From a virus (Duplodnaviria > Heunggongvirae > Uroviricota > Caudoviricetes): a stretch of 64,000 nt of DNA. A program made the translations under genes and the position numbers. Numbering within the stretch: the first letter of the stretch is position 1; every line of letters begins with the position of its first letter. The notes under the pieces are model-generated. The model saw only the letters and a program-made list of their open reading frames with translations, made no database searches and had not been told where the DNA came from. Below are positions 8,801 to 50,890 of this stretch, piece by piece. The stretch is from positions 1 to 64,000 of the IMG/VR virus record IMGVR_UViG_3300020576_002722; one strand, written 5' to 3'.

Positions 8801-11800
8801 GGAGGCCGCCAGGCAGGTAATGAACGAGTCGCCAGAAACGAGGTCATCTATTGCCAGGTTCCTTGAGTCGTACGGTGGGGCCATTCGTAAAGAGGATGGA
8901 TCGATCGATATCGAGGCTACCGTAGCGGACCCGAAACTGGCGCACGAGATATACGCAGAGTTCGTTTCCAGCGTGGCCAATGGTACCATCAAGCTGAACG
9001 GTGGACTTCGCACCTGGCTCAAGGACATGTACAACAAGATCATGGCCACGCTCGGTGTGTCCATGAAGTTCGACCCGAAGAGCGACGACGACTACATCAA
9101 GCTGGCTGCTGATCTTGCGAGCGCCATGAAGACCGGTCGCGTGATCAGGGCTGCGGAGAATGTTGCGGAGAATACAGCACCGGCACTCAGCGTACGTCGT
9201 GCATCAGACCTCGCCCAGCAACTAAACATCGCATCCACCGGGGCCGAGAAGGAGTTCTTCGGGAAGACGTGGCCTGGCTTGCTCAGGCAAGTAGGCAATG
9301 TATTCAAGCCTACCAAGGCTGGGTTTGAGGCTGCTGCCGATCTGGCCGTGAAGGACGTTGAAGAGTTCACCAGGGAGAATCCGAAGTACCAGGACTTCTA
9401 CAACAAGGATTGGGCACTTGCTGTGGCTATGCTCAATGATGCGTTCCCGATAACCAAGGAGCAGCCTGATCTGGTTCTTGCGTTCAGGGCTATGTCCGGA
9501 CTTACGAGTCCACAGACGTCACTTGGCCAGAATATGGTTGAAGCTGTATCTGCATTCGATCACTGGCTGAATAACGGAAGCTTCGATGCTGTAAAAGTAG
9601 TACCAACAGAGAAGGGTAATTTCTCACTCAAGAAATCACCGTTCAGTCTTGGTGGAAAGACAGCAACGAACAAGGCCAGGTCCCTCAAGGGTCTCGGCAA
9701 GCTGATAGATGAGAACGGAGTTGGAAAGGCTATTGAGATACTGAAGGAGCCTGTGTCCGCAAAGGAACTCAATGAGTTCAACGGGAGCCTTGGGTACAAG
9801 AGCGCTGTCGGAGGCATGAAGGCCGTGAAGAACGTGGTCTTGTCTGCTACTGGGCAGAGCGATAAGGTGCCAAGGATGTTCGTGTTCGGACCAAAGCTCG
9901 GTGCCTACACACTGAACTCGCTTGGTGATGGAAGGTTTACGACTATCGACATCTGGGAGAGCAGGTTTATTCGTTCATACTTCCCGAGGATGTTCGCGAG
10001 CGCCGGAGGAAAGATCCTTAACAACAGCACTGATAGCGATATCTTTACCGAGTTCATAGAACAATTCGCAAAGGCTTTCAGGGAAAGGAACGGATTTGAC
10101 CTTGACCCGTCGGCGTATCAAGCGATGCGCTGGTACACTATGATCGACGCTGCCCAGAAGGCAGGGTACACAAAAGCACTCACAGATGGAACAGTCTCAG
10201 ACTACACAGCAGAGGCCCTCGGAAGGGTTAAAGGACACGTTGTTCCTGGATATGCTGGCCGAGGTGGCTTCGACAGCTATCAAAGCAATGATCCAGAAGC
10301 AGAAAACTATGTACCATTCAGTATCCGCCGAGGATCTCCCGGTGGCGACACAGGAGGGAGGGCCGAGCCAGGAAAGAACCTGATACCTAAGGATATCAGG
10401 AAAAACCTCACCAGCGATGGCGACGGTAGCTACTTGTTCTACCATTACGGTGAAGACCTGAATGGCGGACGCATCAATCCAAAGTATGCTGGAACCGGGG
10501 CTGATAAAGGTACCAGGAACGAAGGAAGGAACAACAATGTATCCATGTACTACACGAAGCCTGACGAGCGGGAGTCGATGGTATCTGGAGATGTTCACGT
10601 TGTCAAGGTTCCCGAATACAAGGTGTATCCGTTCAATACCGATCCACTTGGCCTGTACGACAAGGCAGAGAGGATGTTCAGGAAGGACTACGGAGACTAC
10701 ATCGACTTCAGCCCCGTGAAGCAGGCTGACTACATGGGCCCGCTGGCTGCGAAGGCCGGATTCGACATGATGGTGGCCCAGTGGTCAAAGTTCCCGTTGC
10801 GCGGTGAGACGACCAAGGCGCTCAAGTGGGATCGCGAAGCTACCGACAAGGCGCGTGATCCAGCGTTGTCCACCGGATCACAGAAGTTCAACGACATCGC
10901 CCGCGCACTGATCGCTGCCGGCCACAACACCAAGGCCAAGGCCAAGGCGTATCTGAAATCGAAGGGGCAGGACGGGATCATTGATGCTGTCATCGAAGAG
11001 ATGGGGCGCATCCTTGAGGCGCAGCGCGAGATCCGCAAACGCAATGCGGCCGACAATAAACTGTCTGGAGAAACGACCACTCCGTTGCAGAAGCAGATCA
11101 TCGACGACTCTGGACCCGGACAGAACAGGTCTATGATCACTGTCGATGAGCGTATGCTGCTGAAGGACCGCATCAAGCGTGAGGCGCAGCTCGCTGCACA
11201 GTCAGCCCGCAAGGCAGCGACGGCCGCTCGCAATGCAGCCGACCTGGCGCAGACGCACACCGATCAAGGGTACAGGCAGGGCCTCGCCGAGGGTCAGCTT
11301 GCCGGCGAGATATCGGGCAAGGCTCAGGGTCGCAAGGAGGGTGCCCGTGAGGGAGCGGCAGAGGCCGCCCGTCAGCGTGACCTGTTCGTGAAGAGCGTAC
11401 GCGCCCATCTATCGGAGCTTGGCACCAAGTTTACGGAGGCCAAGACGAAGGCCATCATGACCAGGGCCGTGTCGGTGAACCCGACAAACAGGAACCAGGT
11501 CGAAAGATTCTTGGCCTATCTGGATGCGAAGATCGACGAGGCCAACGAGGCGGCACTCGGCAGCGCCGTGGACAGGATCATCGAGCTGACCAACCCGTCA
11601 CGGTACAAGCAGACCAACGAGTCTGGCATCCTGAAGGGGAAGATCGATGACCGCGTTCGCAAGCTGCTCGGGGTGATCCACTCGGCAGTCAAGGGAATGA
11701 CGCTCGAAGAGGTGTCCGACAAGATCGACGCCATCGACGCAGCGCTTTTCTCTCCAGACGCTGATGTGGCCCTTCTGGAGGACCAGCTGGAGGCGTATCG

Positions 11801-22765: not shown

Positions 22766-23770
22766 ATGGCAGGAAAGCAAAGCGTTGCAGGGCAGATCGT
22801 AGAGCAGTATTGCAAGGACTTCCCGAAGATCAACAACGGAAGGCTGGCAAGAAAGATCGCAGAGGAACACCCACAGCTGGGGACCAGTGAGAAGATCCGA
22901 TGGCAGGTAAGGTTCTACCGTCTCCAGGCCGGGAAGACGCACCGCGACACCAGGAAGAAGAACGGTCACGCTCACATGGAGAAGGAGTCCGCTTCGAGCA
23001 ATGTGTACGAGCTTCCTGAGCCACGCATCATTGAGCGGGTCCCGTTCAAGATGCCAAGCTCGATCCGCAAGCTGCTTGTGTTCTCGGACATCCACGTACC
23101 GTACCACGACATGGACGTGGTCAAGCGTGGCATCGAGTTCGGCAAGAGCGAGGGGTGCGATGGGATTCTGCTGAACGGCGACACAATGGATATGTGTGGG
23201 CCATCGTCGCATGATCCGGATCCACGCAGCCTGGACCTTCCGTCCGAGCTGGAGGATGGACGCCAGTTCCTCAGGCACCTGAGGAATAAGTTCCCTAACA
23301 TCCCCATCTACTTCAAGGACGGGAATCACGAGAATAGGCTGGAGCGATATCTGATCAAGCAGGCACCCGTCCTGCTTGGCGTGGATGATTTCGAGCTGCG
23401 CAGCCTGCTCCGCATGGGCGAAGTGGGCATCCAGTGGATCGGCGACAAGCGCCTGTTCCTGGCCGGCAAGCTGGTCATCATACATGGCCACGAGTACAAG
23501 GGCGCGGGTGGTGTCAATCCGGCCAGGTGGCTCTCGCTGCGCACGTCCGGATCGATCATGTGTGGTCACTTCCACCGAAGCTCCTCGCACTTCTCCAAGT
23601 CCATCATGGACGAGATCTCTGGTGCCTGGTCTACCGGATGCATGTGCCACATGAGTCCCGACTACTCACCGTACAACCAGTGGAACCACGGGTTCGCGAT
23701 GGTCCACGTCAACAAGGACAAGACCTTCGAGGTTGAGAACAAGATGATGATCGGTGGCAAGGTACGATGA
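22766..23770 (+). CDS. calcineurin-like metallophosphoesterase
   Basis: The motifs appear in canonical order: FSDIHVPYHD, NGDTMD, GNHENR, IIHGHE, GHFH. Confidence 0.85.
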   Translation: MAGKQSVAGQIVEQYCKDFPKINNGRLARKIAEEHPQLGTSEKIRWQVRFYRLQAGKTHRDTRKKNGHAHMEKESASSNVYELPEPRIIERVPFKMPSSIRKLLVFSDIHVPYHDMDVVKRGIEFGKSEGCDGILLNGDTMDMCGPSSHDPDPRSLDLPSELEDGRQFLRHLRNKFPNIPIYFKDGNHENRLERYLIKQAPVLLGVDDFELRSLLRMGEVGIQWIGDKRLFLAGKLVIIHGHEYKGAGGVNPARWLSLRTSGSIMCGHFHRSSSHFSKSIMDEISGAWSTGCMCHMSPDYSPYNQWNHGFAMVHVNKDKTFEVENKMMIGGKVR

Positions 23771-24294
23771 TCGAGAAGCTGCTGGAGATGGCCGTCGAGT
23801 TCGCCGAGAGGCTGACGCCTGTGTACTTCGTCAAGGAGTACCAGCGAGGGGTCATGTTCCGTGGCGGCAGGTTTAAGGGAGAGATCACGCCAGGCACCCA
23901 CTTCAAGTGGCCGATATTCGATGACATCGAAGTGTTCCTGGTGGCCACTACAACGATGGCTCTTCCAGCGCAGAGCGTCACCACCCGTGACGGCCGCAAT
24001 GTAGTGATCAAGTCCAGGATCAAGTACAGGGTAAGCAACGTCAAGGTGTTCGGTGTCGAGGTGGCCGACGCGCTCGATGCACTCAGCGACATGGTGTGCG
24101 GGATCCAGTTCGACCTGATCCGATCGATGACATGGGAGGAGTCGTGCCTGGCCAACCTGGACGAGGTGATCACAGCCGACGCCAAGAAGGAGGCCAAGAA
24201 GTGGGGCATCACCATCGAGAAGGTGACCGTGACCGACTACTCCGAGATGCGATCGATACGCCTGTTCAACGAGGGCGGCAAGGTGACCGACTAA
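23767..24294 (+). CDS. SPFH/band-7 (prohibitin/HflK-like) domain protein
   Basis: ATGA overlap with the upstream gene. The sequence VKEYQRGVMFRGGRF...PGTHFKWPIFDDIEVF...TRDGRNVVIKSRIKYRV is the typical SPFH core. Confidence 0.8.
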   Translation: MIEKLLEMAVEFAERLTPVYFVKEYQRGVMFRGGRFKGEITPGTHFKWPIFDDIEVFLVATTTMALPAQSVTTRDGRNVVIKSRIKYRVSNVKVFGVEVADALDALSDMVCGIQFDLIRSMTWEESCLANLDEVITADAKKEAKKWGITIEKVTVTDYSEMRSIRLFNEGGKVTD

Positions 24295-24334
24295 CGATTC
24301 GTCACAAAGTACTTGACGTATCAGGAATCTCTCT

Positions 24335-24378: not shown

Positions 24379-24448
24379 GGCCGTGTAGCTCAGTTGGTAG
24401 AGCAGCCCCGACCGGGGTTGGTCGCAGGTTCGAGTCCTGCCACGGGTT
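24379..24448 (+). tRNA. tRNA-like gene with a defective anticodon arm (pseudo-tRNA or anticodon-less tRNA mimic)
   Basis: Parse: GGCCGTG-TA-GCTC-AGTTGGTA-GAGC-A-GCCCC-GACC-GGGGT-TGGTC-GCAGG-TTCGAGT-CCTGC-CACGGGT-T. The D- and T-arms are canonical. The anticodon arm is 3 nt short (4-nt or at best 6-nt loop), so no 7-nt anticodon loop can be drawn. There is a G2:G71 mismatch. Confidence 0.45.
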
Positions 24449-24570
24449 CAGGGAGTTCTTTTCTTCATGGTAGCAAAGGCGGGGTGATCACCGCCGAACT
24501 GGTAGTCGGAAGGCCGCAAGCCGGAGACGTTGTACCACATACGGCCTGTTATAGGACTTGGGGCCGTGCC

Positions 24571-31606: not shown

Positions 31607-31990
31607 TCAGCGCCCGGATCGAGGGTAGAAGACCCCTTTCATGTAGTCGTTCACGTCTGTCATGAACTCCTCTAGGGAGCGGCATTCATAGACTATCCAT
31701 CCAGCCTCTGAGAACCTGATCTGCATCTCTTTCTGTGACTCGGATAGCTTGCCTTTGTCAGACTTCATCTCGATGGCCATGCCGCAGACGTGCGTATCTC
31801 CATACGTCCTGGGATGGCACACCAGGATATCAGGGACTCCGGCCAGTACCCCCATGTCCTTCCACAATTTCCCCATGTGTGGACTCCCGGCATCTCTGCC
31901 ATTGGGAGGGTGGAACGCCAGGACGTTAGGGTACTGTAACCGGAGCCACTTGATACACGCCTTCTGGAGCGCTTGTTCTGGACGCTTCAT
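31607..31990 (-). CDS. VRR-NUC (PD-(D/E)xK) nuclease
   Basis: The start MKRPEQALQKACIKWL has an ATGA overlap with the RNA ligase stop. The catalytic motifs are GVPDILV ... GMAIEMKSDKGKLSESQ. Confidence 0.8.
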   Translation of the reverse strand: MKRPEQALQKACIKWLRLQYPNVLAFHPPNGRDAGSPHMGKLWKDMGVLAGVPDILVCHPRTYGDTHVCGMAIEMKSDKGKLSESQKEMQIRFSEAGWIVYECRSLEEFMTDVNDYMKGVFYPRSGR

Positions 31991-33063
31991 TCCTCGTACT
32001 TGAGAAGGAACTGAGGATTGATCGCCTTGAACGATATGCGTCCACGGGTCACCGTCTTGCCGGTGATGAAGGTCTCGGTCATCTCTTCCAGGCTGCGCAC
32101 CACGATCCCCTCGGCCCATACGTCGGGGTTGATGGCGCTCTTGCGGGTGGCGAAACCAACCAGCTCGTCAACACTGAGGGCACCAAGGGTGAGGCAGTCG
32201 ATGTACGGGACCATCTTCAGGTCCATCGATCCGAATGCGACTGCGGCATCGCTAGGCAGGTACGGCTTGCCGGCATCGATGTCGAACACGTTGAAGAAGA
32301 GAACCTTGCGGCCGGTCAGCTTGTACTTGTTGCCCTGGATCCCTTCGCCGATCAGCTCGCCCTGGATGGCGATGTTCTTGCCGTAGTCGCGGAGCTTCTG
32401 CTCGACGTTCATCTCTCGGGCGTACTGCCAGAACGCATTCCTTTCGTCCTCCTTCAGCTCCAGGTTGCGCGAGCAGACCCCGAACTCCCCGTTGTACAGG
32501 TAGAAGGTAGCGCTGCTGCCGTCCATCTTCTCGCGGATCTCCACCTGCGCTGCGGCGTACTTGTCCAGGATGCCTGGCATGTTCTGGATCCGCTCCTCGT
32601 CCGTCTTGTGGATGAAGGATGGGAAGTAGCCGCGCACGGTACCGCCCAGGCAGGCCGGGATGGCGGGCTCGTACTTGATGATGCCGAGCAGCTCTGTCAC
32701 ATCGTACCCTTCTGCTGACAAGCCCAAGGCTGCGAACAGCTCGTGCTCGGCCGTGATAACATCGGCAAGGATCGACACCGGCATCATCAGGCCCTGGGAT
32801 ACCTGTCCCTTGAGTTTGATGGTGCGCACACGCATGTGGCGTGGCTTCATGAACTCGAACTCTGGTCGGTCAGGAAGGATGCTGTCCGGCTCTATGAATA
32901 CGATCGAATCGCCAATTCTGTGTCCGGCATCGTTCCTGATCACGCACTTCCACCCCAATACGCTGGCTACGGACACTTCGTCGGCTCCGGGTATTGGCTG
33001 GATGTCAGAGATCGTCTGTATGCTTGCAAGTTTTCTGCTCATGATTTTGTGTTTGAGAGCCAT
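31987..33063 (-). CDS. ATP-dependent RNA ligase (DRB0094/Rnl5-like)
   Basis: The N-terminal module is RKLASIQTISDIQPIPGADEVSVASVLGWKCVIR. Nucleotidyl-transferase motif I is EKMDGSS (KxDG). Downstream motifs are EGIVVR and ISFKAINPQF. Confidence 0.85.
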   Translation of the reverse strand: MALKHKIMSRKLASIQTISDIQPIPGADEVSVASVLGWKCVIRNDAGHRIGDSIVFIEPDSILPDRPEFEFMKPRHMRVRTIKLKGQVSQGLMMPVSILADVITAEHELFAALGLSAEGYDVTELLGIIKYEPAIPACLGGTVRGYFPSFIHKTDEERIQNMPGILDKYAAAQVEIREKMDGSSATFYLYNGEFGVCSRNLELKEDERNAFWQYAREMNVEQKLRDYGKNIAIQGELIGEGIQGNKYKLTGRKVLFFNVFDIDAGKPYLPSDAAVAFGSMDLKMVPYIDCLTLGALSVDELVGFATRKSAINPDVWAEGIVVRSLEEMTETFITGKTVTRGRISFKAINPQFLLKYEE

Positions 33064-38687: not shown

Positions 38688-38688
38688 G

Positions 38689-38760
38689 AGGCCCCGCCAG
38701 GAGTCGAACCTGGATCTAGCGTTTAGGAAACGCTCGTTCTGTCCATTGAACTATGAGGCC
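38689..38760 (-). tRNA. tRNA-Arg: tRNA-Arg (anticodon CCT)
   Basis: Sense strand: GGCCTCA-TA-GTTC-AATGGACA-GAAC-G-AGCGT-TTCCTAA-ACGCT-AGAT-CCAGG-TTCGACT-CCTGG-CGGGGCC-T. It is followed by C, then ATG (38687). Confidence 0.9.
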
Positions 38761-41060: not shown

Positions 41061-41080
41061 ATTCGTGTGACGAATAGTTA
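41061..41080 (-). repeat. 16-nt repeat TAACTATTCGTCACAC (copy 1) forming the hairpin ATTCG-TCACA-CGAAT
   Basis: An identical 16-mer occurs at 44805-44820. Both copies lie 54-55 nt upstream of a start codon. This copy contains the TAA stop of ORF 41078..41275. Confidence 0.6.
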
Positions 41081-43941: not shown

Positions 43942-43956
43942 GTGTGTGTGTGTGTT

Positions 43957-43970
43957 GAGGATTGTACCTC
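43957..43970 (-). promoter_or_regulatory. variant hairpin GAGG-UACAAU-CCUC upstream of the ParB-like gene
   Basis: It holds the same position as the UCACAU hairpins (directly 3' of a tRNA-like element), but the loop differs. A (CA)n tract follows before the ATG. Confidence 0.35.
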
Positions 43971-43972
43971 GC

Positions 43973-44012
43973 GGGCCTCCCGGTCTCGAACCGGGAAGAC
44001 TGCCTGTGGCCC
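43973..44012 (-). ncRNA. tRNA-like element T1 (acceptor plus T-arm)
   Basis: Sense strand: GGGCC-ACAGGCAGTCTT-CCCGG-TTCGAGA-CCGGG-A-GGCCC. It starts 6 nt after the TGA at 44019. Confidence 0.5.
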
Positions 44013-44804: not shown

Positions 44805-44820
44805 GTGTGACGAATAGTTA
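44805..44820 (-). repeat. 16-nt repeat TAACTATTCGTCACAC (copy 2), promoter-associated
   Basis: Identical to 41065-41080. It is followed by the hairpin GGGGAA-N10-TTCCCC and a -7-like box CATTTTTG 18 nt before the ATG at 44751. Confidence 0.55.
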
Positions 44821-45440: not shown

Positions 45441-45458
45441 ATGGCGATGTGACGCCAT
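45441..45458 (-). promoter_or_regulatory. conserved-loop hairpin H1 (sense AUGGCG-UCACAU-CGCCAU)
   Basis: 6-bp stem and 6-nt loop. It is one of 8 copies with an identical loop and unrelated but complementary stems. Confidence 0.7.
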
Positions 45459-45460
45459 GT

Positions 45461-45500
45461 GCGCGTCCCGGAATCGAACCGGGACGTGAACCGTTCGCGC
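45461..45500 (-). ncRNA. tRNA-like element T2
   Basis: Sense strand: GCGCG-AACGGTTCAC-GTCCCGG-TTCGATT-CCGGGAC-GCGC, then AC. It is preceded by tandem stops TAG-TAA. Confidence 0.65.
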
Positions 45501-45503
45501 TTA

Positions 45504-45752
45504 CTATTCTTCGCCCTGAGCGATGACAGGGAGTCCGTGGAACGCTATGTCGTTCCGGTATGTTTCGAGCGCCTCTGCTATCGACCTGCATTCAGCGACG
45601 ACCCCCTCGGGGGTGTGCATGATAACGCGTCGGAAGCCCCTGGTGATGGCGATGCCTCGTAGCTGGCAGGCCAGCGACAGGGTGTCCCATTTGGTCCGGC
45701 GCGGGTCCTGCTGGGACTGGTGCCGGGTCATCGAGTGGTGCGCTGTGTACAT
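45504..45752 (-). CDS. hypothetical protein (82 aa)
   Basis: The ATG overlaps the upstream stop (TGATG). Confidence 0.5.
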   Translation of the reverse strand: MYTAHHSMTRHQSQQDPRRTKWDTLSLACQLRGIAITRGFRRVIMHTPEGVVAECRSIAEALETYRNDIAFHGLPVIAQGEE

Positions 45753-45961
45753 CACTTTTCCTCGTTGTAGTGTGACTGTGCCCGTCGCAGCGCATCAGCG
45801 AAGTCCGTCTGAGCCTCATTGGTATCGCAGTAGTGCATCAGGTCGGCCAAGATGTCGCAAACCGTGTTGGCGTTGTCGTCGGCACCAAGTTCGGCCACAT
45901 ACGCATCGACCAGCTTGGCACCCATTGCCGCCCGGTCCTTGTTCGTTCTTTCGATGTCCAT
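45752..45961 (-). CDS. hypothetical acidic protein (69 aa)
   Basis: The start MDIERTNKDR follows the A/C-rich leader TCAAACCAATACCCAAAACAAC. Confidence 0.55.
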   Translation of the reverse strand: MDIERTNKDRAAMGAKLVDAYVAELGADDNANTVCDILADLMHYCDTNEAQTDFADALRRAQSHYNEEK

Positions 45962-45983
45962 GTTGTTTTGGGTATTGGTTTGA

Positions 45984-46027
45984 GCCTGCGGGCGGAATCG
46001 AACCGCCCTGAGTACTCCATTGCAGGC
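45984..46027 (-). ncRNA. tRNA-like element T3
   Basis: Sense strand: GCCTGC-AATGGAGTACTCA-GGGCGG-TTCGATT-CCGCCC-GCAGGC, then TC. It starts 8 nt after the TAG at 46036. Confidence 0.65.
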
Positions 46028-46035
46028 TGCCGGGT

Positions 46036-46461
46036 CTACGACCACTCGGTGATCAGCGCCACTTTGTCGGCGTTCAGTCCCCACGTATTCGCCCGGTCGC
46101 GGAGCCTCGACTGGACCCCTTCTACCGTGCGCGACTGTTCGTATTCCTCGCCGGGTCCATCGTGCGCCGTTTGCATGTCCACGAAGAAATTCTGCGGCAA
46201 CACCGGCAGATAGTCCTTCGCAGCTTCATACACATCATCGTTGCGTATGAATGATGTGCCGCCGGAGTTCAACATCGAATCCAGCTTGACGGCCACATTA
46301 TCCGGCAACATGCAGCCGACGGCGCAGCTTGTTCCGCCCGGTCCACGATAGGCGCACCCTGTTGCTGGTGCCATTGCCCGACGCCTCTGCTTGGCCATGT
46401 GTTCGACGATGAAGTCGAACGTTTGCTGCATGTCCATCTTCTTGATATCCTCCGTGTTCAT
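46036..46461 (-). CDS. hypothetical protein (141 aa)
   Basis: Clean ORF. The ATG lies 11 nt after hairpin H2. Confidence 0.65.
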   Translation of the reverse strand: MNTEDIKKMDMQQTFDFIVEHMAKQRRRAMAPATGCAYRGPGGTSCAVGCMLPDNVAVKLDSMLNSGGTSFIRNDDVYEAAKDYLPVLPQNFFVDMQTAHDGPGEEYEQSRTVEGVQSRLRDRANTWGLNADKVALITEWS

Positions 46462-46472
46462 TGTTCATGTGC

Positions 46473-46488
46473 GGGCAATGTGATGCCC
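46473..46488 (-). promoter_or_regulatory. conserved-loop hairpin H2 (GGGCA-UCACAU-UGCCC)
   Basis: See H1. The spacer to the ATG is GCACAUGAACA. Confidence 0.7.
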
Positions 46489-46491
46489 TGT

Positions 46492-46530
46492 GCTGCCCCC
46501 GGAATCGAACCGGGGGAGAACCATTGCAGC
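46492..46530 (-). ncRNA. tRNA-like element T4
   Basis: Sense strand: GCTGC-AATGGTTCTC-CCCCGG-TTCGATT-CCGGGG-GCAGC, then AC. It starts immediately after the TAA at 46531. Confidence 0.65.
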
Positions 46531-47022
46531 TTACAGGTCGAGTGCGTCGATGCGCCCCACCATCTTGCGGGCCTTGGCGATGTCGCCCACCGTGGCCGTG
46601 CAGTGTACCAGATGCTCGGTGAGCACCTCGATCATGTCGCGGGCCTCGCGCAGCACACCGGACACCGTCTCGAAGTCCACGGGGACATCTTCGGACTCTT
46701 CCATCCATGCCGTCTCCACATACTGCTGCTGGCCGTACGTGATCACGCCCAAGCTCACCAAGAGCTTCAGCGCGTCGTGGATGTTGTTGAAGCCCCTGAT
46801 GGCCTGCACTCGTCCATCCACGCTGCCGTACACGGTCCAGAACACGCTGTTTGCTGGCGCATCCTCTGGAGGCTCGACGCCGTTGAGCGGTTGCGTATCG
46901 GTGCCGTCATCCATGCACAGGGAAAGCTCGTACGAGTTGAATGTACCGACATTGGAGGTGTCCTTCGTGAACAGCCACCGGTCGGGGCGCTTCTCGTCGT
47001 GCATCCGTTCTACTTTGGTCAT
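46531..47022 (-). CDS. hypothetical protein (163 aa)
   Basis: The start MTKVERMHDE lies 11 nt after hairpin H3. Confidence 0.65.
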   Translation of the reverse strand: MTKVERMHDEKRPDRWLFTKDTSNVGTFNSYELSLCMDDGTDTQPLNGVEPPEDAPANSVFWTVYGSVDGRVQAIRGFNNIHDALKLLVSLGVITYGQQQYVETAWMEESEDVPVDFETVSGVLREARDMIEVLTEHLVHCTATVGDIAKARKMVGRIDALDL

Positions 47023-47033
47023 TGGTTCATGGT

Positions 47034-47051
47034 AGCGCAATGTGATGCGCT
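47034..47051 (-). promoter_or_regulatory. conserved-loop hairpin H3 (AGCGCA-UCACAU-UGCGCU)
   Basis: Identical in sequence to H8. The spacer to the ATG is ACCAUGAACCA. Confidence 0.7.
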
Positions 47052-47121
47052 GGTGGAGCCGGGGGAATCGAACCGCCCGCGAATGCGCTCTACTTGCTGC
47101 GCAAGGGTACCATAGCTCCAC
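47051..47121 (-). ncRNA. tRNA-like element T5 (69 nt, D-arm-less, encoded A-CCA end)
   Basis: Sense strand: GGAGCTA-TGGTACCCT-TGCGC-AGCAAGTAGA-GCGCA-TTCGCG-GGCGG-TTCGATT-CCCCC-GGCTCC-A-CCA. It has an extra hairpin with a 10-nt loop in place of an anticodon arm, and one C:C mismatch in the T-stem. Confidence 0.55.
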
Positions 47122-47128
47122 GCCTTCT

Positions 47129-47884
47129 TCACGATAGCCTGTTGGCGCTCGATGTTGCACCGGACACCGGCCTATTGAAATTCACATTGTCTCCAGCAGA
47201 ACGACCGGAGTTGTAGGCATCCCTGCTTCCTGCGTGTCTGCGGCTTGTCGTGGTCCGCAGCTTCACCCCAAGGTCGCCCAGATACTTCTTGTACTTCTGG
47301 ACGGTCACATTGCTCTTCACGACCATAATGGCCGTGCATGAGTTGCCCTCTGCCGCCTTTCGCTCTGCCACCATGCGACGTAGTCGTTCGGCGATACGTG
47401 ATCCCATGCCGAGCATGAACGAGGCACGCAGAGTACGACCGTGCATACTGGTACCGCCATCTCGTTTGAGGCGCTTCAATTCAGCCTGCTTCAGCTTCCA
47501 CGCCTGCTCCATAGCTCCCTGTATCATGTCGCACAGGTAGAAGGCCATCTCGGTGTCTTTGGCGGTTCCGAAGTATAGCATTTCGCCGTTGTACCACTTC
47601 GTCACCTTGGTATCGGTGAACTCGGAAATGGCAACGGAGCACGAGTTTACCACCTCAGGCCACCTGTTCATATTCACGCCCGTGGCGTACGGACGCTTTC
47701 GGGCACCGTACTGGTCACCCATGATGGACGCCTCGTCCATAGTGATGTTGTATTCGCGGATAAGGGAGTCCAACTTCTGTGCTGCCGCGATGGCCTCTGC
47801 CTCAGTGCAACCGTTGCTAACGGTACGCGCCTGAAGCTCCCGGATGATGCGGGCTATCCGCTCCCGATTAACGTTCTGTTCCAT
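47129..47884 (-). CDS. DUF2786-like protein (251 aa)
   Basis: The N-terminus ERIARIIRELQARTVSNGCTEAEAIAAAQKLDSLIREYNI resembles the DUF2786 helix pair common in phage and plasmid proteins, recalled from memory. Confidence 0.65.
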   Translation of the reverse strand: MEQNVNRERIARIIRELQARTVSNGCTEAEAIAAAQKLDSLIREYNITMDEASIMGDQYGARKRPYATGVNMNRWPEVVNSCSVAISEFTDTKVTKWYNGEMLYFGTAKDTEMAFYLCDMIQGAMEQAWKLKQAELKRLKRDGGTSMHGRTLRASFMLGMGSRIAERLRRMVAERKAAEGNSCTAIMVVKSNVTVQKYKKYLGDLGVKLRTTTSRRHAGSRDAYNSGRSAGDNVNFNRPVSGATSSANRLS

Positions 47885-47895
47885 TGTTCATGTGT

Positions 47896-47913
47896 ATACC
47901 CATGTGAGGGTAT
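47896..47913 (-). promoter_or_regulatory. conserved-loop hairpin H4 (AUACCC-UCACAU-GGGUAU)
   Basis: The spacer to the ATG is ACACAUGAACA. Confidence 0.7.
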
Positions 47914-47915
47914 TG

Positions 47916-47972
47916 GAACGGTGGATGGTGTCGATCCATCAGCACGCGTGCTCACCGGCCGGGGCACCGTTC
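47916..47972 (-). ncRNA. tRNA-like element T6 (divergent)
   Basis: Sense strand: GAACGGTG-CCCCGGCCGGTG-AGCACGCGTGCT-GATGG-ATCGACA-CCATC-CACCGTTC. It has an 8-bp closing stem, and the T-loop departs from the TTCGA consensus. Confidence 0.45.
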
Positions 47973-47977
47973 AGGTA

Positions 47978-48370
47978 TTACATTAGGCCCAGACCACGCA
48001 GGGCGCTCATATCCTTGTCGAAGCTCGCCGGCCACTTCACCGTGGACAGGTCGCGCACGAACGTCGACGCCTCCGCGTCAAGGAACAGGCACCCACCGAT
48101 GGACACCTTGAATGGGTTCGGTTGCAGCCCGTTCCACGCTGCGAACGCCAGAGGGTCACTCATGGCGCTCGGAGCCTTCTTCAGTAGCCGCATGTGCTTC
48201 TGTGGCCCGACCTTGTAGAAGGCCCTCTGGATGGCGTCCAGATGCGTCTGCGGGATGTCGCACCCGTGCTGCGCCTTGTGGATGTCCTTGGCCACGTTCT
48301 GGGCCAGTTGCAGTGCGGTCATACGTTGGACCTTGTCGGCGTGCTCTGCGTACGCCTTCGCTGTGCTCAT
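47978..48370 (-). CDS. hypothetical protein (130 aa)
   Basis: Clean ORF with the A/C-rich leader AAACCAATACAACCACAGAACA. Confidence 0.65.
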   Translation of the reverse strand: MSTAKAYAEHADKVQRMTALQLAQNVAKDIHKAQHGCDIPQTHLDAIQRAFYKVGPQKHMRLLKKAPSAMSDPLAFAAWNGLQPNPFKVSIGGCLFLDAEASTFVRDLSTVKWPASFDKDMSALRGLGLM

Positions 48371-48394
48371 TGTTCTGTGGTTGTATTGGTTTGT

Positions 48395-48434
48395 GCCCGC
48401 CGTGGAATCGAACCACGGCGTGAACCGTTCGGGC
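48395..48434 (-). ncRNA. tRNA-like element T7
   Basis: Sense strand: GCCCG-AACGGTTCAC-GCCGTGG-TTCGATT-CCACGGC-GGGC, then AC. Its first G is the G of the upstream TAG stop. The linker is identical to T2 while both stems differ by compensatory changes. Confidence 0.65.
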
Positions 48435-48538
48435 TACTGGTCGGCCAGTGTCTGGTCGTCGGGCCGCTGTTGCGACCGCTTCTGTTCAGCCTTGCGGCGT
48501 TCGTGCTCTTCGCGGAGCACCTGTGTGTAGTGCGTCAT
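48434..48538 (-). CDS. possible micro-ORF (34 aa)
   Basis: The sequence MTHYTQVLREEHERRKAEQKRSQQRPDDQTLADQ starts 2 nt after the upstream stop. The rest of track ORF 48434..48697 overlaps the previous gene. Confidence 0.3.
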   Translation of the reverse strand: MTHYTQVLREEHERRKAEQKRSQQRPDDQTLADQ

Positions 48539-48540
48539 AG

Positions 48541-48765
48541 TCAGTTCAGGGTGAGTCGTGGTACTACAACGAAGGCCCCCAGTTCCCGGTGGAACACGTA
48601 GCGTGCCCCGATAGTGGAGCACAGGCATACACGGCCCTCGGCCATCAGTACCCGTGCATAGGTGGGCACCTTGTCGATGGGGTCGAGTCGTAGGCACCCG
48701 TCTATCAGGTGCCCGTCAAGGTCGTGGGCCAGCGCTGCGGCCCGCTCTTGGTCCTTGGTATTCAT
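48541..48765 (-). CDS. hypothetical protein (74 aa)
   Basis: The ATG lies 10 nt after hairpin H5. Confidence 0.55.
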   Translation of the reverse strand: MNTKDQERAAALAHDLDGHLIDGCLRLDPIDKVPTYARVLMAEGRVCLCSTIGARYVFHRELGAFVVVPRLTLN

Positions 48766-48775
48766 TCGTCAGTGG

Positions 48776-48793
48776 ACGGCAATGTGATGCCGT
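48776..48793 (-). promoter_or_regulatory. conserved-loop hairpin H5 (ACGGCA-UCACAU-UGCCGU)
   Basis: The spacer to the ATG is CCACUGACGA. Confidence 0.7.
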
Positions 48794-48796
48794 TGT

Positions 48797-48838
48797 GCGC
48801 GGGCAGGGAGTCGAACCCCGCCCTCGGACCATCCGCGC
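48797..48838 (-). ncRNA. tRNA-like element T8
   Basis: Sense strand: GCGC-GGATGGTCCGA-GGGCGGGG-TTCGACT-CCCTGCCC-GCGC, then AC. It starts 2 nt after the TAA at 48841. Confidence 0.6.
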
Positions 48839-48840
48839 TG

Positions 48841-49122
48841 TTACTTCCACACTTCCGCCACCACCTCAGGTGGCGCATCCTCGGTCGCCCTGCACATTTC
48901 CCAACCAGTGGTGCTCAGGATGGCTTGGCCGTACTTCTCGTCGCACTTGACACTGACCACTTGCCCTTGGTGTACCGGGTTGGACCCATAGGCCGACGGA
49001 TACGCCTCAAAAGCCTCGCCATCGCGAGCTATCAGGATGGCGTGCCTCAGGCCGAACGAATTGGTGTTGGTGGACAAGATGGCCACCTTGAACTCCTTAC
49101 GGAGCATGGATGTCTGGTTCAT
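48841..49122 (-). CDS. hypothetical protein (93 aa)
   Basis: The start MNQTSMLRKEF is at the ATGA overlap with the small zinc-ribbon ORF. Confidence 0.55.
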   Translation of the reverse strand: MNQTSMLRKEFKVAILSTNTNSFGLRHAILIARDGEAFEAYPSAYGSNPVHQGQVVSVKCDEKYGQAILSTTGWEMCRATEDAPPEVVAEVWK

Positions 49123-49268
49123 CGCTTTGCTGGTGTTGGTTTCTTCTCGGTGTAGAACATCATCCCGCACTGGTAGCAGCGGAAATGGATGATGGTGCCC
49201 ATGAGTCCCATAGGCGCGTTGGTCGTGCTGCACATGGGGCAGCTACGGCGTACTCGTTGCCATGCCAT
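49119..49268 (-). CDS. small zinc-ribbon protein (49 aa, below the track cutoff)
   Basis: Hand translation: MAWQRVRRSCPMCSTTNAPMGLMGTIIHFRCYQCGMMFYTEKKPTPAKR (CPMC...CYQC). The ATG lies 10 nt after hairpin H6. Confidence 0.45.
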   Translation of the reverse strand: MAWQRVRRSCPMCSTTNAPMGLMGTIIHFRCYQCGMMFYTEKKPTPAKR

Positions 49269-49278
49269 TGTCTGTTGG

Positions 49279-49294
49279 TCGCAATGTGATGCGA
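49279..49294 (-). promoter_or_regulatory. conserved-loop hairpin H6 (UCGCA-UCACAU-UGCGA)
   Basis: The spacer to the ATG is CCAACAGACA. Confidence 0.7.
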
Positions 49295-49297
49295 TGA

Positions 49298-49342
49298 TCG
49301 CTGTCTGGACTCGAACCAGATGTCCCGCCTATCGGGCAGCGA
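49298..49342 (-). ncRNA. tRNA-like element T9 (acceptor, D-arm-like hairpin and T-arm)
   Basis: Sense strand: TCGCTG-[CCCG ATAGG CGGG]-ACA-TCTGG-TTCGAGT-CCAGA-CAGCGA, then TC. Confidence 0.55.
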
Positions 49343-49376
49343 AGGGTGCGCTACGTCCTTGGTGGCGCGGTATTGG

Positions 49377-49763
49377 TCAGCCTTGGTTCACCGGCTGAAG
49401 GTGTGCGTTCAGTGTGCGGCCATCGGGCATCAGGAAGAATTGCGGGTTGAACTCGCCCCACTTCTCAGCTTGCGGGCCAACGAGGTAGCCCTTGCCGCCC
49501 CGGTTCCAGTACACGGCGATGGCCTCTTGTCCGAGGGTTTCAGACAACCGGTGGACAAGTGTCTCTTCAACGGCATTCCACCCGGCAGCGCCAACCTCCA
49601 CTACCATCGTCGGTTCGGTGTTGCTGTTTATCGGGCCGTGAAAGGTGAGCGGAGCGTGGATGCCTGTGTCGGTCGGATACGTCCTTCGCACCGCATCCAT
49701 TACCTGTTCTACGGTATTGGTTCCGCCGTCCGGCCTGTTGAGGCCGATGTTGAGTGTGAACAT
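49377..49763 (-). CDS. hypothetical protein (128 aa)
   Basis: The start MFTLNIGLNRP is chosen 9 nt after hairpin H7, by analogy with the other units. An in-frame ATG inside the hairpin (49790) is possible. Confidence 0.6.
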   Translation of the reverse strand: MFTLNIGLNRPDGGTNTVEQVMDAVRRTYPTDTGIHAPLTFHGPINSNTEPTMVVEVGAAGWNAVEETLVHRLSETLGQEAIAVYWNRGGKGYLVGPQAEKWGEFNPQFFLMPDGRTLNAHLQPVNQG

Positions 49764-49772
49764 TGCTTGGGG

Positions 49773-49790
49773 ATGTCCATGTGAGGACAT
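49773..49790 (-). promoter_or_regulatory. conserved-loop hairpin H7 (AUGUCC-UCACAU-GGACAU)
   Basis: The spacer to the ATG is CCCCAAGCA. Confidence 0.7.
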
Positions 49791-49792
49791 TG

Positions 49793-49860
49793 TGGACCGT
49801 ACGGGAGTCGAACCCGCCGTCAAACCCCACCCGGGGCGGCCCTGTATTGCTCCACGGCTC
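49793..49860 (-). ncRNA. tRNA-like element T10 (about 68 nt, non-canonical core)
   Basis: Sense strand: GAGCCGT...CCCCGGGTGGGG...-GCGGG-TTCGACT-CCCGT-ACGGTCC-A-C. The acceptor has 7 bp with one mismatch. The D and anticodon regions cannot be drawn canonically. Confidence 0.45.
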
Positions 49861-49877
49861 AGTACGTCTTTTGAGGG

Positions 49878-50114
49878 TCAAGCTGCGTCGGGCCCTGAAG
49901 GCATTTCTACCACTTCCTCGTCCCATGTTTCTACCTCGGCCTCGGTGTCTTGGGTGAACTTACCCACGTCTGCAAGGTATTCCGCGCCTGCGGCAAGATT
50001 CTCCTTCAGTTCTTGGATGGATGCCCCGTTCATGGTGTATTCCACCTCGATAGTCAGTCTCAGTTTAGCGGTCTTCATGTTCGTGCTATGCTTAGCGCTT
50101 GTCTTGATATCCAT
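49878..50114 (-). CDS. hypothetical acidic protein (78 aa)
   Basis: The first gene of the small-gene block. The ATG lies 9 nt after hairpin H8. Confidence 0.6.
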   Translation of the reverse strand: MDIKTSAKHSTNMKTAKLRLTIEVEYTMNGASIQELKENLAAGAEYLADVGKFTQDTEAEVETWDEEVVEMPSGPDAA

Positions 50115-50123
50115 GGCCTTGAT

Positions 50124-50141
50124 AGCGCAATGTGATGCGCT
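50124..50141 (-). promoter_or_regulatory. conserved-loop hairpin H8 (AGCGCA-UCACAU-UGCGCU)
   Basis: The most upstream copy. No full tRNA-like element precedes it, only the hairpin CCGGG-AGCGATG-CCCGG at about 50148-50170. Confidence 0.7.
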
Positions 50142-50659
50142 GCCTGTCCACCGGGCATCGCTCCCGGACCTCGTTGGCGGTTAATTACTCCGCCACGTTG
50201 CGCTTCATTAGCTGAACAGGTTGTGCGATGTTTCCGTTATCGTGCATCGCCTCACTGGCCCTTTCATGAGGTGGAGCCATACCCGGTGGCGCATTACGGT
50301 GCGCTCTACCTGCGCCCCCTATCCCGCATCGAAGCGGGTGGCCACGTAGTGACGGTGGTCGCGTCCTGCTAGGGGGTATAGTTCCAAGATGTCAAAGAAC
50401 GCGCTCTAGGTCACACCGCACCGTGTTTCTCGGTACAGTCCCGTTCCCAGCGGCCTTCCTACGGGCCATCGCGGCTAGTAGTTTCGGCACCACATCATGT
50501 GGCTGCTGGTCAGTGCGTTACGTGTGAAAGAACGACGCCTAGCTTGGTGGCCCTCACGGGTGACTGTTGCCGAACGCGATGCAAGTGTAGGCTGCCGCAT
50601 GGCCACCGACCTAATTTCCAGTGACGAACGGTTGGGAACGGGACGAACGGTTGGCCAGA

Positions 50660-50890
50660 CTAGGTGGCTTGATCGCCTGGAGGCCGCGATACTGTAGGCC
50701 AGAACGACATCTTGTAGCCAAGTAGCTGCAAATAGGCTTGGAGCGTAGACATGGACGTGGTAAGCACGTTGGCTTCGAGCCTGGCCACGGTCACTGGCTT
50801 CACCCCGATGCGTTCGGCCACGTCCGCTTGTGACCACCCGAGCCGCCTGCGTTTGGCGATCACAAAGTTGTCCATCTTGCGCCTGGCCAT
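50660..50890 (-). CDS. XRE/Cro-CI-family helix-turn-helix regulator (76 aa)
   Basis: The sequence is MARRKMDNFVIAKRRRLGWSQADVAERIGVKPVTVARLEANVLTTSMSTLQAYLQLLGY. A class I -7 box lies 4 nt upstream of the ATG, which predicts a leaderless transcript. The N-terminal extension in the track is not credible. Confidence 0.75.
   Translation of the reverse strand: MARRKMDNFVIAKRRRLGWSQADVAERIGVKPVTVARLEANVLTTSMSTLQAYLQLLGYKMSFWPTVSRPPGDQAT

Follow-up and report, generated by a model that had tools for sequence, protein, structure and literature searches.

In plant mitochondria, tRNA-like t-elements direct the RNase Z and RNase P cuts that make mRNA ends (PMC1920247), and 5'-terminal base pairing is known to stabilise bacterial mRNA (works listed in PMC3997798). 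Small hairpins with conserved loops are also found in the early promoters of phage N4, where a conserved loop and a few conserved stem bases are combined with other stem bases that are free provided they pair (PMC4496689). We analysed a 64,000-nt window (positions 1 to 64,000 of the IMG/VR record IMGVR_UViG_3300020576_002722, a member of Caudoviricetes), in which eight hairpins with an identical six-base loop lie just upstream of eight genes of one co-directional operon of small orphan genes. Seven of these hairpins directly follow miniature tRNA-like elements that carry the same GGTTCRANYCC arm as the t-elements. The phage probably infects a Bacteroidota host.

Leader hairpins with an invariant loop

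We identified eight perfect Watson-Crick hairpins with the loop UCACAU on the minus (sense) strand between 45441 and 50141, confirming the sequence-only reading. In the order of transcription, these are AGCGCA/TGCGCT (50124-50141), which ends 9 nt before ATG 50114; ATGTCC/GGACAT (49773-49790), 9 nt before ATG 49763; TCGCA/TGCGA (49279-49294), 10 nt before ATG 49268; ACGGCA/TGCCGT (48776-48793), 10 nt before ATG 48765; ATACCC/GGGTAT (47896-47913), 11 nt before ATG 47884; AGCGCA/TGCGCT again (47034-47051), 11 nt before ATG 47022; GGGCA/TGCCC (46473-46488), 11 nt before ATG 46461; and ATGGCG/CGCCAT (45441-45458), 8 nt before ATG 45432. The whole leader is 28-31 nt. As noted in the sequence-only reading, three of the spacers are nearly identical, sharing (A/G)CACAUGAACA-AUG or ACCAUGAACCA-AUG. 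The distance from the 3' end of the tRNA-like element to the hairpin is 1-3 nt, slightly wider than the 2-3 nt reported originally, and the first hairpin of the operon (50124) has no tRNA-like element upstream.

Mononucleotide shuffles gave a mean of 0.015 such hairpins and a maximum of 1. The bare hexamer ATGTGA is not enriched (35 observed against 42.5 expected), so the signal is the hairpin context. TCACAT is the only enriched hairpin-loop family in the window, with 8 copies against at most 2 for any 6-nt loop in shuffles. In the alignment of the stems, 95.8% of cells are paired and four of six pairs show compensatory changes, whereas none of 500 shuffles reached the observed covariation score and slid registers collapsed to 19-35% paired. 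There are no changes in 48 loop positions, while four of six stem pairs have changed on both sides, which argues for selection on the loop sequence. All eight hairpins form in the minimum-free-energy fold of their intergenic region, with an RNA dG of -5.6 to -8.7 kcal/mol (-8.7 for the hairpin at 50124). All 46 paired cells are Watson-Crick, so the hairpins of this window do not by themselves distinguish RNA from DNA.

The stems, described as unrelated in sequence in the sequence-only reading, are only partly free: the outermost 5' base is A in all eight, and the second pair from the loop is always C-G. Of the two related variants proposed there, the one at 41061-41075 is not a member of the family but one copy of a 15-nt direct repeat, AACTATTCGTCACAC, with other copies at 44805-44819 and, with 2 mismatches, at 24293-24307 on the + strand. 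Each copy sits 4-5 nt upstream of a -35-like hexamer, and the hairpin cannot form in the other two copies. The variant at 43957-43970 (GAGG UACAAU CCUC), in contrast, follows a tRNA-like element by 2 nt and is a plausible degenerate relative with a different loop. It has a 4-bp stem and is followed by (CA)7 and ATG 43941, the start of a ParB-like gene; this segment is identical in the relative L021.

A cross-phage family of tRNA-like elements

The tRNA-like elements consist of an acceptor stem, an unpaired AAYGGUU stretch that mimics the D loop (G18-G19), and a T arm, with no D stem and no anticodon arm; the acceptor and T stems together stack 11-13 bp. They belong to a widespread family that is not held in Rfam. 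A covariance model, R1, built only from 22 elements of other phages, found five elements in the window, all on the minus strand: 48395-48434 (49.2 bits, E 6.5e-10), 46492-46530 (47.1 bits, E 2.2e-9), 45461-45500 (45.2 bits, E 6.5e-9), 45983-46028 (35.6 bits, E 1.8e-6) and 48797-48838 (25.9 bits, E 4.9e-4), the last of which also gave a weak mascRNA-like Rfam hit below threshold. Genuine tRNAs in the window gave only partial T-arm hits of about 16 bits. The element at 43973-44012, upstream of the degenerate hairpin, is marginal (17.2 bits, E 0.08). In the model alignment the linker keeps invariant A, A, G, G, and a sixth T-stem pair that the search did not require is formed in 21 of 22 sequences. 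The elements at 48395-48434 and 45983-46028 are not followed by a hairpin but by the leaders ACAAACCAAUAC...AUG and CAAACCAAUAC...AUG, respectively, so a hairpin is not required after every element.

The remaining hairpins follow longer forms on the same strand. The element at 49794-49842, which ends 3 nt before its hairpin, has an acceptor GGGCCG/CGGUCC with G.U, a small inserted hairpin and a T arm with the loop UUCGACU, and gave only a partial T-arm hit with R1. That at 49298-49342 has the acceptor UCGCUG/CAGCGA, an inserted hairpin CCCG-AUAGG-CGGG and a T arm, and that at 47916-47972 has an 8-bp acceptor and a divergent T loop, AUCGACA. The element at 47053-47121 is nearly full-size, with a 7-bp acceptor GUGGAGC/GCUCCAC, an anticodon-arm-like hairpin and a T arm with one bulge; it gave a weak hit to the tRNA-like domain of tmRNA (E 0.026-0.066), below threshold.

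Across 139 distinct elements of this family, 71% have an ATG-started ORF within 60 nt downstream on the same strand (median 38 nt), compared with 9% in the opposite-strand control, and 61% follow an ORF stop within 60 nt (median 9 nt). A hairpin within 6 nt of the 3' end of the element was found for 20 of 60 elements in one sample (6.3 expected) and for 31 of 79 in a second, independent sample (7.4 expected), about four times the chance rate. Arrays of such modules occur in unrelated phages: one, designated here L202, has 6 modules, and the isolate Mycobacterium phage Cuke has 8-10; R1 found ten elements in Cuke, where nothing is annotated. In those hairpins single mismatches are G.U-type 7 times and A.C-type once, which fits sense-strand RNA. 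However, the only moderately diverged relative recovered (L007, 54% identity in the DUF7168 protein) has neither elements nor hairpins at the matching junctions.

Possible roles of the hairpins

The sequence-only reading listed four possible roles without choosing among them: a translational operator, a protective 5' stem-loop left after RNase Z-type cleavage, a boxB-like site and an N4-type promoter. The second gains real comparative support from the data above and is part of the reading that we favour, with moderate confidence. In this inferred mechanism, host tRNA-processing enzymes recognise each element, RNase P cutting at its 5' side and an RNase Z-type activity after the discriminator A at its 3' side, and the polycistronic RNA is thereby split into single-gene messages, as at plant mitochondrial t-elements. 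The hairpin would then become the base-paired 5' end of the downstream message, with at most 1-2 unpaired nt, shielding the new 5'-monophosphate end from 5'-end-dependent decay and keeping the short A/C-rich landing zone (8-11 nt, no Shine-Dalgarno sequence) free of upstream structure. In the absence of transcript data, every cleavage step, the protective effect and the existence of a loop-binding factor remain inferences. RNase P cleavage alone would already leave a base-paired 5' end, the acceptor stem, which makes a further protective hairpin partly redundant, and because the hairpin at 50124 has no element upstream, its role cannot depend strictly on the element. A purely structural role also does not explain an invariant loop. 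The UCACAU loop, seen only in this phage, and the fixed C-G pair most likely add a sequence-specific contact for one trans-acting factor, phage or host. Neither a loop-binding protein nor a complementary RNA was found; one AUGUGA in the tRNA-cluster spacer lies in a stem, not a loop.

The next possibility, which we regard as unlikely though compatible with the data, is a pure translational operator, at which a phage-encoded or host RNA-binding protein or nuclease represses, or cuts, the eight early messages together, in the way T4 RegA or RegB and the MS2 and PP7 coat proteins act, the tRNA-like element being irrelevant to the hairpin. An invariant loop and stem pair within a covarying stem is the pattern expected of a structure-plus-sequence protein site, and this is the simplest explanation for the loop. 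The hairpin lies at -9 to -26 from the AUG, inside or next to the ribosome landing zone, and it marks only a subset of genes, the first without an element and two elements without a hairpin. However, no RNA-binding protein was identified in the window, and this reading explains neither the fixed 1-3 nt distance to the acceptor 3' end nor the hairpins with unrelated loops at the same place behind such elements in other phages.

Less likely still, the hairpin could be a translation enhancer that displays a CA-rich loop (CACA) as a ribosome contact, through protein S1 or the platform. No gene in the window has a Shine-Dalgarno sequence, leaders are A/C-rich, (CA)7 directly precedes the AUG of the ParB-like gene, and loops of the equivalent hairpins in other phages are also A/C-rich (for example ACAC, ACCAAC and AUCCC). 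On the other hand, loose CA-richness would not demand six invariant bases, and the equivalent hairpins in the Shine-Dalgarno-using phages L202 and Cuke sit upstream of normal Shine-Dalgarno sequences.

An N4-type promoter, extruded on the template strand and recognised by a phage RNA polymerase to give near-leaderless messages, with the tRNA-like elements marking the 3' ends of the preceding transcripts, is disfavoured. The pattern of a conserved loop plus one fixed stem pair is similar to that of N4 (PMC4496689), all stems are perfect Watson-Crick, no sigma-70-like promoter was found just upstream of the first hairpin, and a 2753-aa virion-type protein of unknown function is encoded. However, the loop is 6 nt, not 3, and no RNA polymerase could be detected in the window: Pfam, PHROGs and PDB sequence searches of the giant protein were empty, scans for DxDGD and T7-like motifs were negative, and its only distant relatives are 'structural proteins' of Flavobacterium and Tenacibaculum phages. 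Moreover, the same module in L202 and Cuke sits between closely packed cistrons with Shine-Dalgarno sequences, inside plainly polycistronic operons, and shows G.U pairs, and the tight spacing to the acceptor end is unexplained under a promoter model.

A DNA-level cassette boundary that promotes recombinational shuffling of small accessory genes, like the promoter-early stem-loops of T4-type phages, is improbable: the modules flank small orphan genes and occur in unrelated phages with unrelated genes, which suggests mobility or convergence, but the strict co-orientation with genes at fixed distances to stop and start codons, the covariation that preserves pairing rather than sequence, and the G.U bias all point to RNA. 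A boxB-like antitermination site or other elongation signal, although suggested by a small hairpin with a conserved loop in an early operon, is the least likely, as the loop is not a GNRA-like pentaloop, no boxA-like partner is present, and there are eight copies, one per cistron, with no terminators between the cistrons.

Miniature tRNA look-alikes turn out to be common between genes in many phages, which suggests that phages cut long messages into single-gene messages the way mitochondria do. In the phage described here, the invariant loop probably binds an unidentified factor, which would treat the eight messages as one regulon, through translation or stability.

The UCACAU hairpins of the early operon

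The hairpins are real and lie far beyond chance expectation. The genes between about 31 kb and 51 kb of the window run on the minus strand, so that the sense reading of the motif is N5-6-UCACAU-N5-6. A direct scan found exactly eight perfect hairpins with this loop, all on the minus strand and all between 45441 and 50141, as opposed to 0.015 in shuffled sequence. The bare hexamer is not enriched in the window, so the signal is the hairpin itself, and no other hairpin-loop family in the window comes close (8 copies of TCACAT, whereas shuffles give at most 2 copies of any six-base loop). In the ungapped alignment of the eight copies, 95.8% of cells pair and four of the six pairs have compensatory changes; no shuffle reached the observed covariation score, and slid registers fell to 19-35% pairing. 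In contrast to the sequence-only reading, which took the stem sequence to be free, the stems are not wholly free: the outermost 5' base is always A, and the second pair from the loop is always C-G. Each hairpin forms in the minimum-energy fold of its intergenic region, with RNA stabilities of -5.6 to -8.7 kcal/mol, and ends 8-11 nt before the start codon of the next gene. Three of the hairpin-to-ATG spacers (46462-46472, 47023-47033 and 47885-47895, minus strand) contain an upstream AUG 7-8 nt before the annotated start (CAUGAACAAUG, CAUGAACCAAUGA), and one of these opens a three-codon mini-ORF whose stop overlaps the main AUG.

Seven hairpins start 1-3 nt after a tRNA-like element. In all, ten such elements were identified on this strand between 43973 and 49842, all of them located between minus-strand genes. 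The conserved T-arm motif GGTTCRANYCC is present within foldable tRNA-like structures, with eight minus-strand copies of GGTTCGANTCC between 45470 and 49814 and two additional divergent copies. These are not genuine tRNA genes: ARAGORN calls only the five true tRNAs, and Rfam gives no tRNA hit at E up to 10. Six of the elements are about 40 nt long and have a 5-7 bp acceptor stem, an unpaired stretch beginning AAUGG or AACGG, a 6-bp T stem with loop UUCGAUU or UUCGACU, and the acceptor 3' strand, usually followed by ACA. The other four are longer variants that carry an extra small hairpin or an anticodon-arm-like insert. Although the split between the two stems varies, the acceptor and T stems together stack 11-13 bp, which, we infer, is what enzymes that measure from the tRNA elbow would require. 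Two elements (48395-48434 and 45983-46028) have no hairpin and are followed by a shared unstructured leader, (A)CAAACCAAUAC. Conversely, the first hairpin of the operon (50124) has no element upstream. It lies at the end of a 519-nt non-coding stretch (50142-50660, minus strand) that separates it from an HTH_3 (Cro/CI-like) gene, folds somewhat better than shuffles (z = -2.7), and ends in a long imperfect duplex that closes 6 nt before the hairpin; no Rfam match and no consensus promoter were found in this stretch.

The sequence-only reading also listed 41061-41075 as a related variant of the hairpin, but this site is not a member of the family. It belongs to a promoter-associated direct repeat, a 15-nt motif AACTATTCGTCACAC found at 41065-41079 (minus strand), 44805-44819 (minus strand) and, with 2 mismatches, 24293-24307 (plus strand), in each case 4-5 nt upstream of a -35-like hexamer (TTGACA-16-TAGATT, TTGACG-16-TACATT and TTGGGG). 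It looks like a promoter-associated protein site and shares TCACA with the hairpin loop, possibly by coincidence.

The phage and the distribution of the hairpin

The window comes from contig Ga0364485_11268 (66 kb) of JGI metagenome 3300033069, and identical operon segments occur in two Logan assemblies. The phage encodes a DnaB-type helicase, a DUF6371 primase-like protein, NAMPT-like enzymes and five tRNAs, as well as an RNA ligase with PHA02142 OB-fold and RNA_ligase domains and a metallophosphoesterase (31987-33063, minus strand, and 22766-23770, plus strand), a possible RNA-repair pair in a genome rich in tRNA-like RNAs. Most other proteins match nothing. The operon products are small orphans, with one DUF7168/DUF2786 protein and three PHROGs of unknown function as the only matches; no loop-binding protein was found among them, only a zinc-ribbon-like 49-aa protein and PHROGs of unknown function. 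No gene in the window is preceded by a Shine-Dalgarno sequence, and leaders are A/C-rich; a (CA)7 tract (43942-43956, minus strand) sits directly upstream of the ATG of the ParB-like gene. The 2753-aa protein (5820-14081) has distant tblastn matches, at 22-28% identity, only to structural proteins of Flavobacterium and Tenacibaculum phages (Pachyviridae). Together, the lack of Shine-Dalgarno sequences, the A/C-rich leaders and these matches suggest a Bacteroidota host, which is likely but not shown.

Among the genuine tRNAs, a tRNA-Arg(CCU) (38688-38760, minus strand) ends one or two bases before an ATG at 38687 that opens the DnaA_C-domain gene, although the gene caller prefers an ATG 15 nt further on. 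Processing of this tRNA could leave a leaderless or very short-leader message. At the head of the phage tRNA cluster (Phe, Asn, Gly), which has long non-coding spacers, ARAGORN reports a tRNA of undetermined type (24379-24449, plus strand) whose anticodon stem closes on a loop of only about 3-5 nt. One AUGUGA lies in a non-coding spacer of this plus-strand cluster (25004), but it is predicted to sit in a stem, so a kissing-loop interaction with the hairpins was rejected. As for pairing of CAU with the AUG, the start regions show no extended complementarity.

Patterns that combine the T loop with the hairpin loop found nothing real in IMG/VR, JGI metagenomes or GTDB genomes. The T loop plus GCATCACATTGC gave 0 hits in IMG/VR and 9 hits in JGI metagenomes, all of them chance and mostly a coding sequence. 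The T loop plus ACA-N5-6-TCACAT matched 83 stretches in GTDB genomes, none of which is a comparable hairpin, the only stem of 5 bp or more being a trivial A6/T6 run; the same pattern gave 12 hits in IMG/VR, none valid. Many of the GTDB matches were Bacteroidota tRNA genes followed by terminators: many tRNA genes of Bacteroidota lack an encoded CCA and are followed by A-CA(A)AGCC...TCACA...GGCTTTTTT terminator hairpins, which explains most chance hits. An AATGGTT-type element plus TCACAT gave 4 hits, of which only one locus (L203) has the hexamer in a hairpin, with a different fold. The window's contig is absent from the viral and metagenome collections, whereas contigs with the identical protein carry identical hairpins. 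A relative with 54% identity in the DUF7168 protein (L007) has A/C-rich leaders but neither elements nor hairpins. A relative with a 79% identical helicase (L021) is nearly identical upstream but stops short of the operon, covering only the region downstream of it; in L021, the (CA)7 tract is one CA unit shorter, and the tRNA-Arg arrangement is conserved with a compensating C-to-U change in the acceptor stem. Searches with two operon proteins gave no useful viral loci. The UCACAU hairpin is therefore, as far as we could reach, private to this phage.

Miniature tRNA-like elements in other phages

In contrast to the hairpin loop, the tRNA-like elements belong to a widespread family that is common between genes in many unrelated phages and is not annotated. 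In a first scan, forty-six hits had the same miniature architecture, with an acceptor stem flanking the motif at the exact register, and a second scan with AACGGTT behaved the same way. We aligned 22 elements from other phages, the family being defined by an acceptor stem of at least 5 bp, an unpaired linker starting A-A-Y-G-G-U-U, a 6-bp T stem and a UUCGANU loop. Eleven pairs were 99.6% paired; ten of these were required by our filter, so that their pairing is circular, but a sixth T-stem pair that the search had not demanded was formed in 21 of 22 sequences. The linker has invariant A, A, G, G. The covariance model built from these 22 elements (R1) contains no window sequence, and yet it finds five window elements at 25.9-49.2 bits (E 4.9e-4 to 6.5e-10); a sixth is marginal (E 0.08), the four longer variants give only T-arm hits, and the genuine tRNAs of the window give only partial T-arm hits of about 16 bits. 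R1 also finds ten elements within 7.4 kb of the isolate Mycobacterium phage Cuke (MG757156, 29.7-37.4 kb), which was not used for the model and whose GenBank record has no feature at these sites, although two of the hits overlap annotated CDSs, which may be miscalled. Rfam 15 has no family for these elements, and full-text literature searches found no description of them in phages, although absence from the literature searched is not proof of novelty.

Among 139 distinct elements from IMG/VR, 71% have an ATG-started ORF of at least 40 codons beginning within 60 nt downstream on the same strand (median 38 nt), as opposed to 9% for the opposite-strand control, and 61% lie within 60 nt after an ORF stop (median 9 nt). 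The elements are therefore intercistronic and co-oriented with genes, which points to a role in the sense transcript. The base after the acceptor is most often A, followed by C. A hairpin of at least 5 bp starting within 6 nt of the acceptor 3' end is found far more often than chance, in 20 of 60 elements in the first sample (6.3 in shuffles, maximum 13) and in 31 of 79 in the second (7.4 in shuffles, maximum 14).

Several unrelated phages carry arrays of the full module, which consists of the element, AC(G)N, hairpin, A-rich spacer, ribosome-binding site and AUG. The IMG/VR locus L202 (75-2625) has six copies with stem UUCGC/GCGAA and A/C-rich loops, phage Cuke has eight copies with variable stems and a semi-conserved AUCCC loop, and the loci L327, L336/L226 and L174 also carry them. 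In low-GC arrays without Shine-Dalgarno sequences (L250, L293, L331), the element is followed by ACAAA leaders and usually no hairpin, like the two hairpin-less junctions in the window. Single non-Watson-Crick positions in these hairpins are G.U-type seven times and A.C-type once, which fits sense-strand RNA, although the counts are small and not fully independent.

Inferred role of the module and comparison with known systems

An acceptor and T-arm stack with an intact elbow is what RNase P and RNase Z recognize, and plant mitochondrial t-elements with the same T-arm motif direct exactly such cuts and so create mRNA ends (PMC1920247). Likewise, a base-paired 5' end protects bacterial mRNA from 5'-end-dependent decay (works cited in PMC3997798). 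From the anatomy of the operon we infer, without transcript data, that it is transcribed as one RNA and cut at each element, so that the downstream message starts with 'CA' or similar, followed by the hairpin, 8-11 unstructured A/C-rich bases and the AUG. This explains the tight and constant spacing on both sides of the hairpin, the 28-31 nt leader, and the recurrence of the design in other phages. It does not explain the invariant loop. With no change in 48 loop positions while the stems have turned over, the loop is under selection of its own, and the simplest reading is a contact with one trans-acting factor, which we could not identify.

The t-elements and the organellar tRNA punctuation model are among the closest precedents, as those tRNA-like structures also lie between or next to coding regions, their ends coincide with mRNA ends made by RNase P on the 5' side and RNase Z on the 3' side, and stem-loops are also seen at mRNA 5' ends (PMC1920247). 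Those systems are organellar, whereas the elements described here are in double-stranded DNA phages of bacteria, are reduced to about 40 nt (acceptor, D-loop mimic and T arm), are arrayed up to ten per operon and are often coupled to a hairpin 1-6 nt downstream. The 3' tRNA-like elements of mascRNA/MALAT1 and MEN-beta and the tRNA-like domain of tmRNA are also reduced tRNA mimics that keep the acceptor and T-arm stack and the elbow, but Rfam models of mascRNA and tmRNA give only weak hits on the window elements, far below the gathering thresholds (18.6 against 42.5 bits, and 13-20 against 47 bits). There is no anticodon-like arm as in mascRNA, and no mRNA-like domain, tag peptide or G3.U70 as in tmRNA. 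In the ompA and papA leaders and other 5'-terminal stabilizing stem-loops (works listed in PMC3997798), a short stable hairpin within a few nt of the 5' end blocks 5'-end-dependent decay, and the 5' overhang predicted here after cleavage is 1-2 nt. Those hairpins, however, act at primary transcript ends and need no conserved loop, whereas here the end would be made by processing and the loop is invariant. The start-associated sequences (SAS/ESAS) of Cluster K mycobacteriophages (PMC3203893) are likewise repeated conserved motifs a few bases upstream of many start codons in one phage genome, with function still unproven, but SAS appears to be a conserved linear 13-bp sequence that overlaps the ribosome-binding site and ESAS an imperfect inverted repeat; they have no tRNA-like partner, and sequence rather than structure is conserved. 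Finally, synthetic RNA insulators, such as the ribozyme-plus-hairpin RiboJ, Csy4 sites (PMC4604432) and polycistronic tRNA-guide arrays, seem to follow the same design logic of a processing element, a hairpin and the ribosome-binding region, which gives each cistron a defined, context-free 5' end; those are engineered, whereas the phage module would be a natural counterpart that uses host tRNA enzymes.

Among the alternatives, a pure protein operator is compatible with the invariant loop but ignores the geometry and the cross-phage pattern. An operator of the MS2/PP7 coat-protein type, in which a hairpin with a bulged purine encloses the start codon or ribosome-binding site, is not supported, as the stems are perfect with no bulge, the hairpin ends 8-11 nt before the AUG, and no such coat-protein gene was found in this double-stranded DNA phage. 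A CA-rich translation enhancer fits the leaders that lack Shine-Dalgarno sequences and the (CA)7 tract before the ParB-like gene but does not explain strict invariance. An N4-type hairpin promoter has a similar pattern of conservation, with a conserved loop, a few fixed stem bases and the remaining stem bases free provided they pair, and a location at the start of early genes (PMC4496689). In N4, however, the structure is a DNA hairpin in three copies, with a 5-7 bp stem, a 3-nt loop that has a central purine and a conserved -8 G, and it needs a giant T7-like virion polymerase, gyrase and SSB; here the loop is 6 nt (UCACAU in sense, ATGTGA on the template strand) and there are eight copies. 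No polymerase was found in Pfam, PHROGs, PDB sequence or motif searches, although about 2 kb of the 66-kb contig lies outside the window, a copy of the same phage may reach 78 kb, and very divergent polymerases could escape detection. The family evidence for RNA also speaks against a promoter. Cassette-boundary and boxB-type readings both fit poorly, the latter because lambda-type boxB/nut sites generally have a 5-bp stem with a GNRA-like pentaloop, a boxA partner and one or two copies per operon, whereas here the loop is UCACAU, no boxA is present and there are eight copies.

The hairpins are best seen as the local, unusually sequence-constrained form of a leader stem-loop that commonly follows phage mini-tRNA punctuation marks, although all functional steps are inferred. 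The kinds of parts, tRNA-like processing signals and 5' stem-loops, are known, but their combination, their miniature form, their abundance in phages and the fixed loop appear to be undescribed. A more far-reaching possibility, doubtful on the present evidence, is that phages of many hosts carry a dedicated, previously uncatalogued RNA punctuation system in which miniature tRNA mimics recruit host RNase P and RNase Z to cut early operons into single-gene messages, and may also release a swarm of roughly 40-nt tRNA-like RNAs with a role of their own. In this phage, the hairpin exposed at each new 5' end would carry a fixed six-base address (UCACAU) that one unknown factor reads to switch the whole early gene set on or off, a new kind of post-transcriptional regulon in a host group that lacks Shine-Dalgarno-based initiation.

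The invariant UCACAU loop offers a compact, testable handle on how genes are regulated after transcription in phages of Bacteroidota-like hosts, where initiation works without Shine-Dalgarno pairing and is poorly understood, and the presence of the same module in a cultivable mycobacteriophage makes the processing step accessible to experiment. If the inferred mechanism holds, it would add an RNA family to the catalogues, where GenBank records such as that of phage Cuke leave these 80-100 nt gaps blank, and would correct gene calls that run over the elements. It would also show that tRNA punctuation is not an organelle oddity but a common phage strategy for expressing packed arrays of small early genes.
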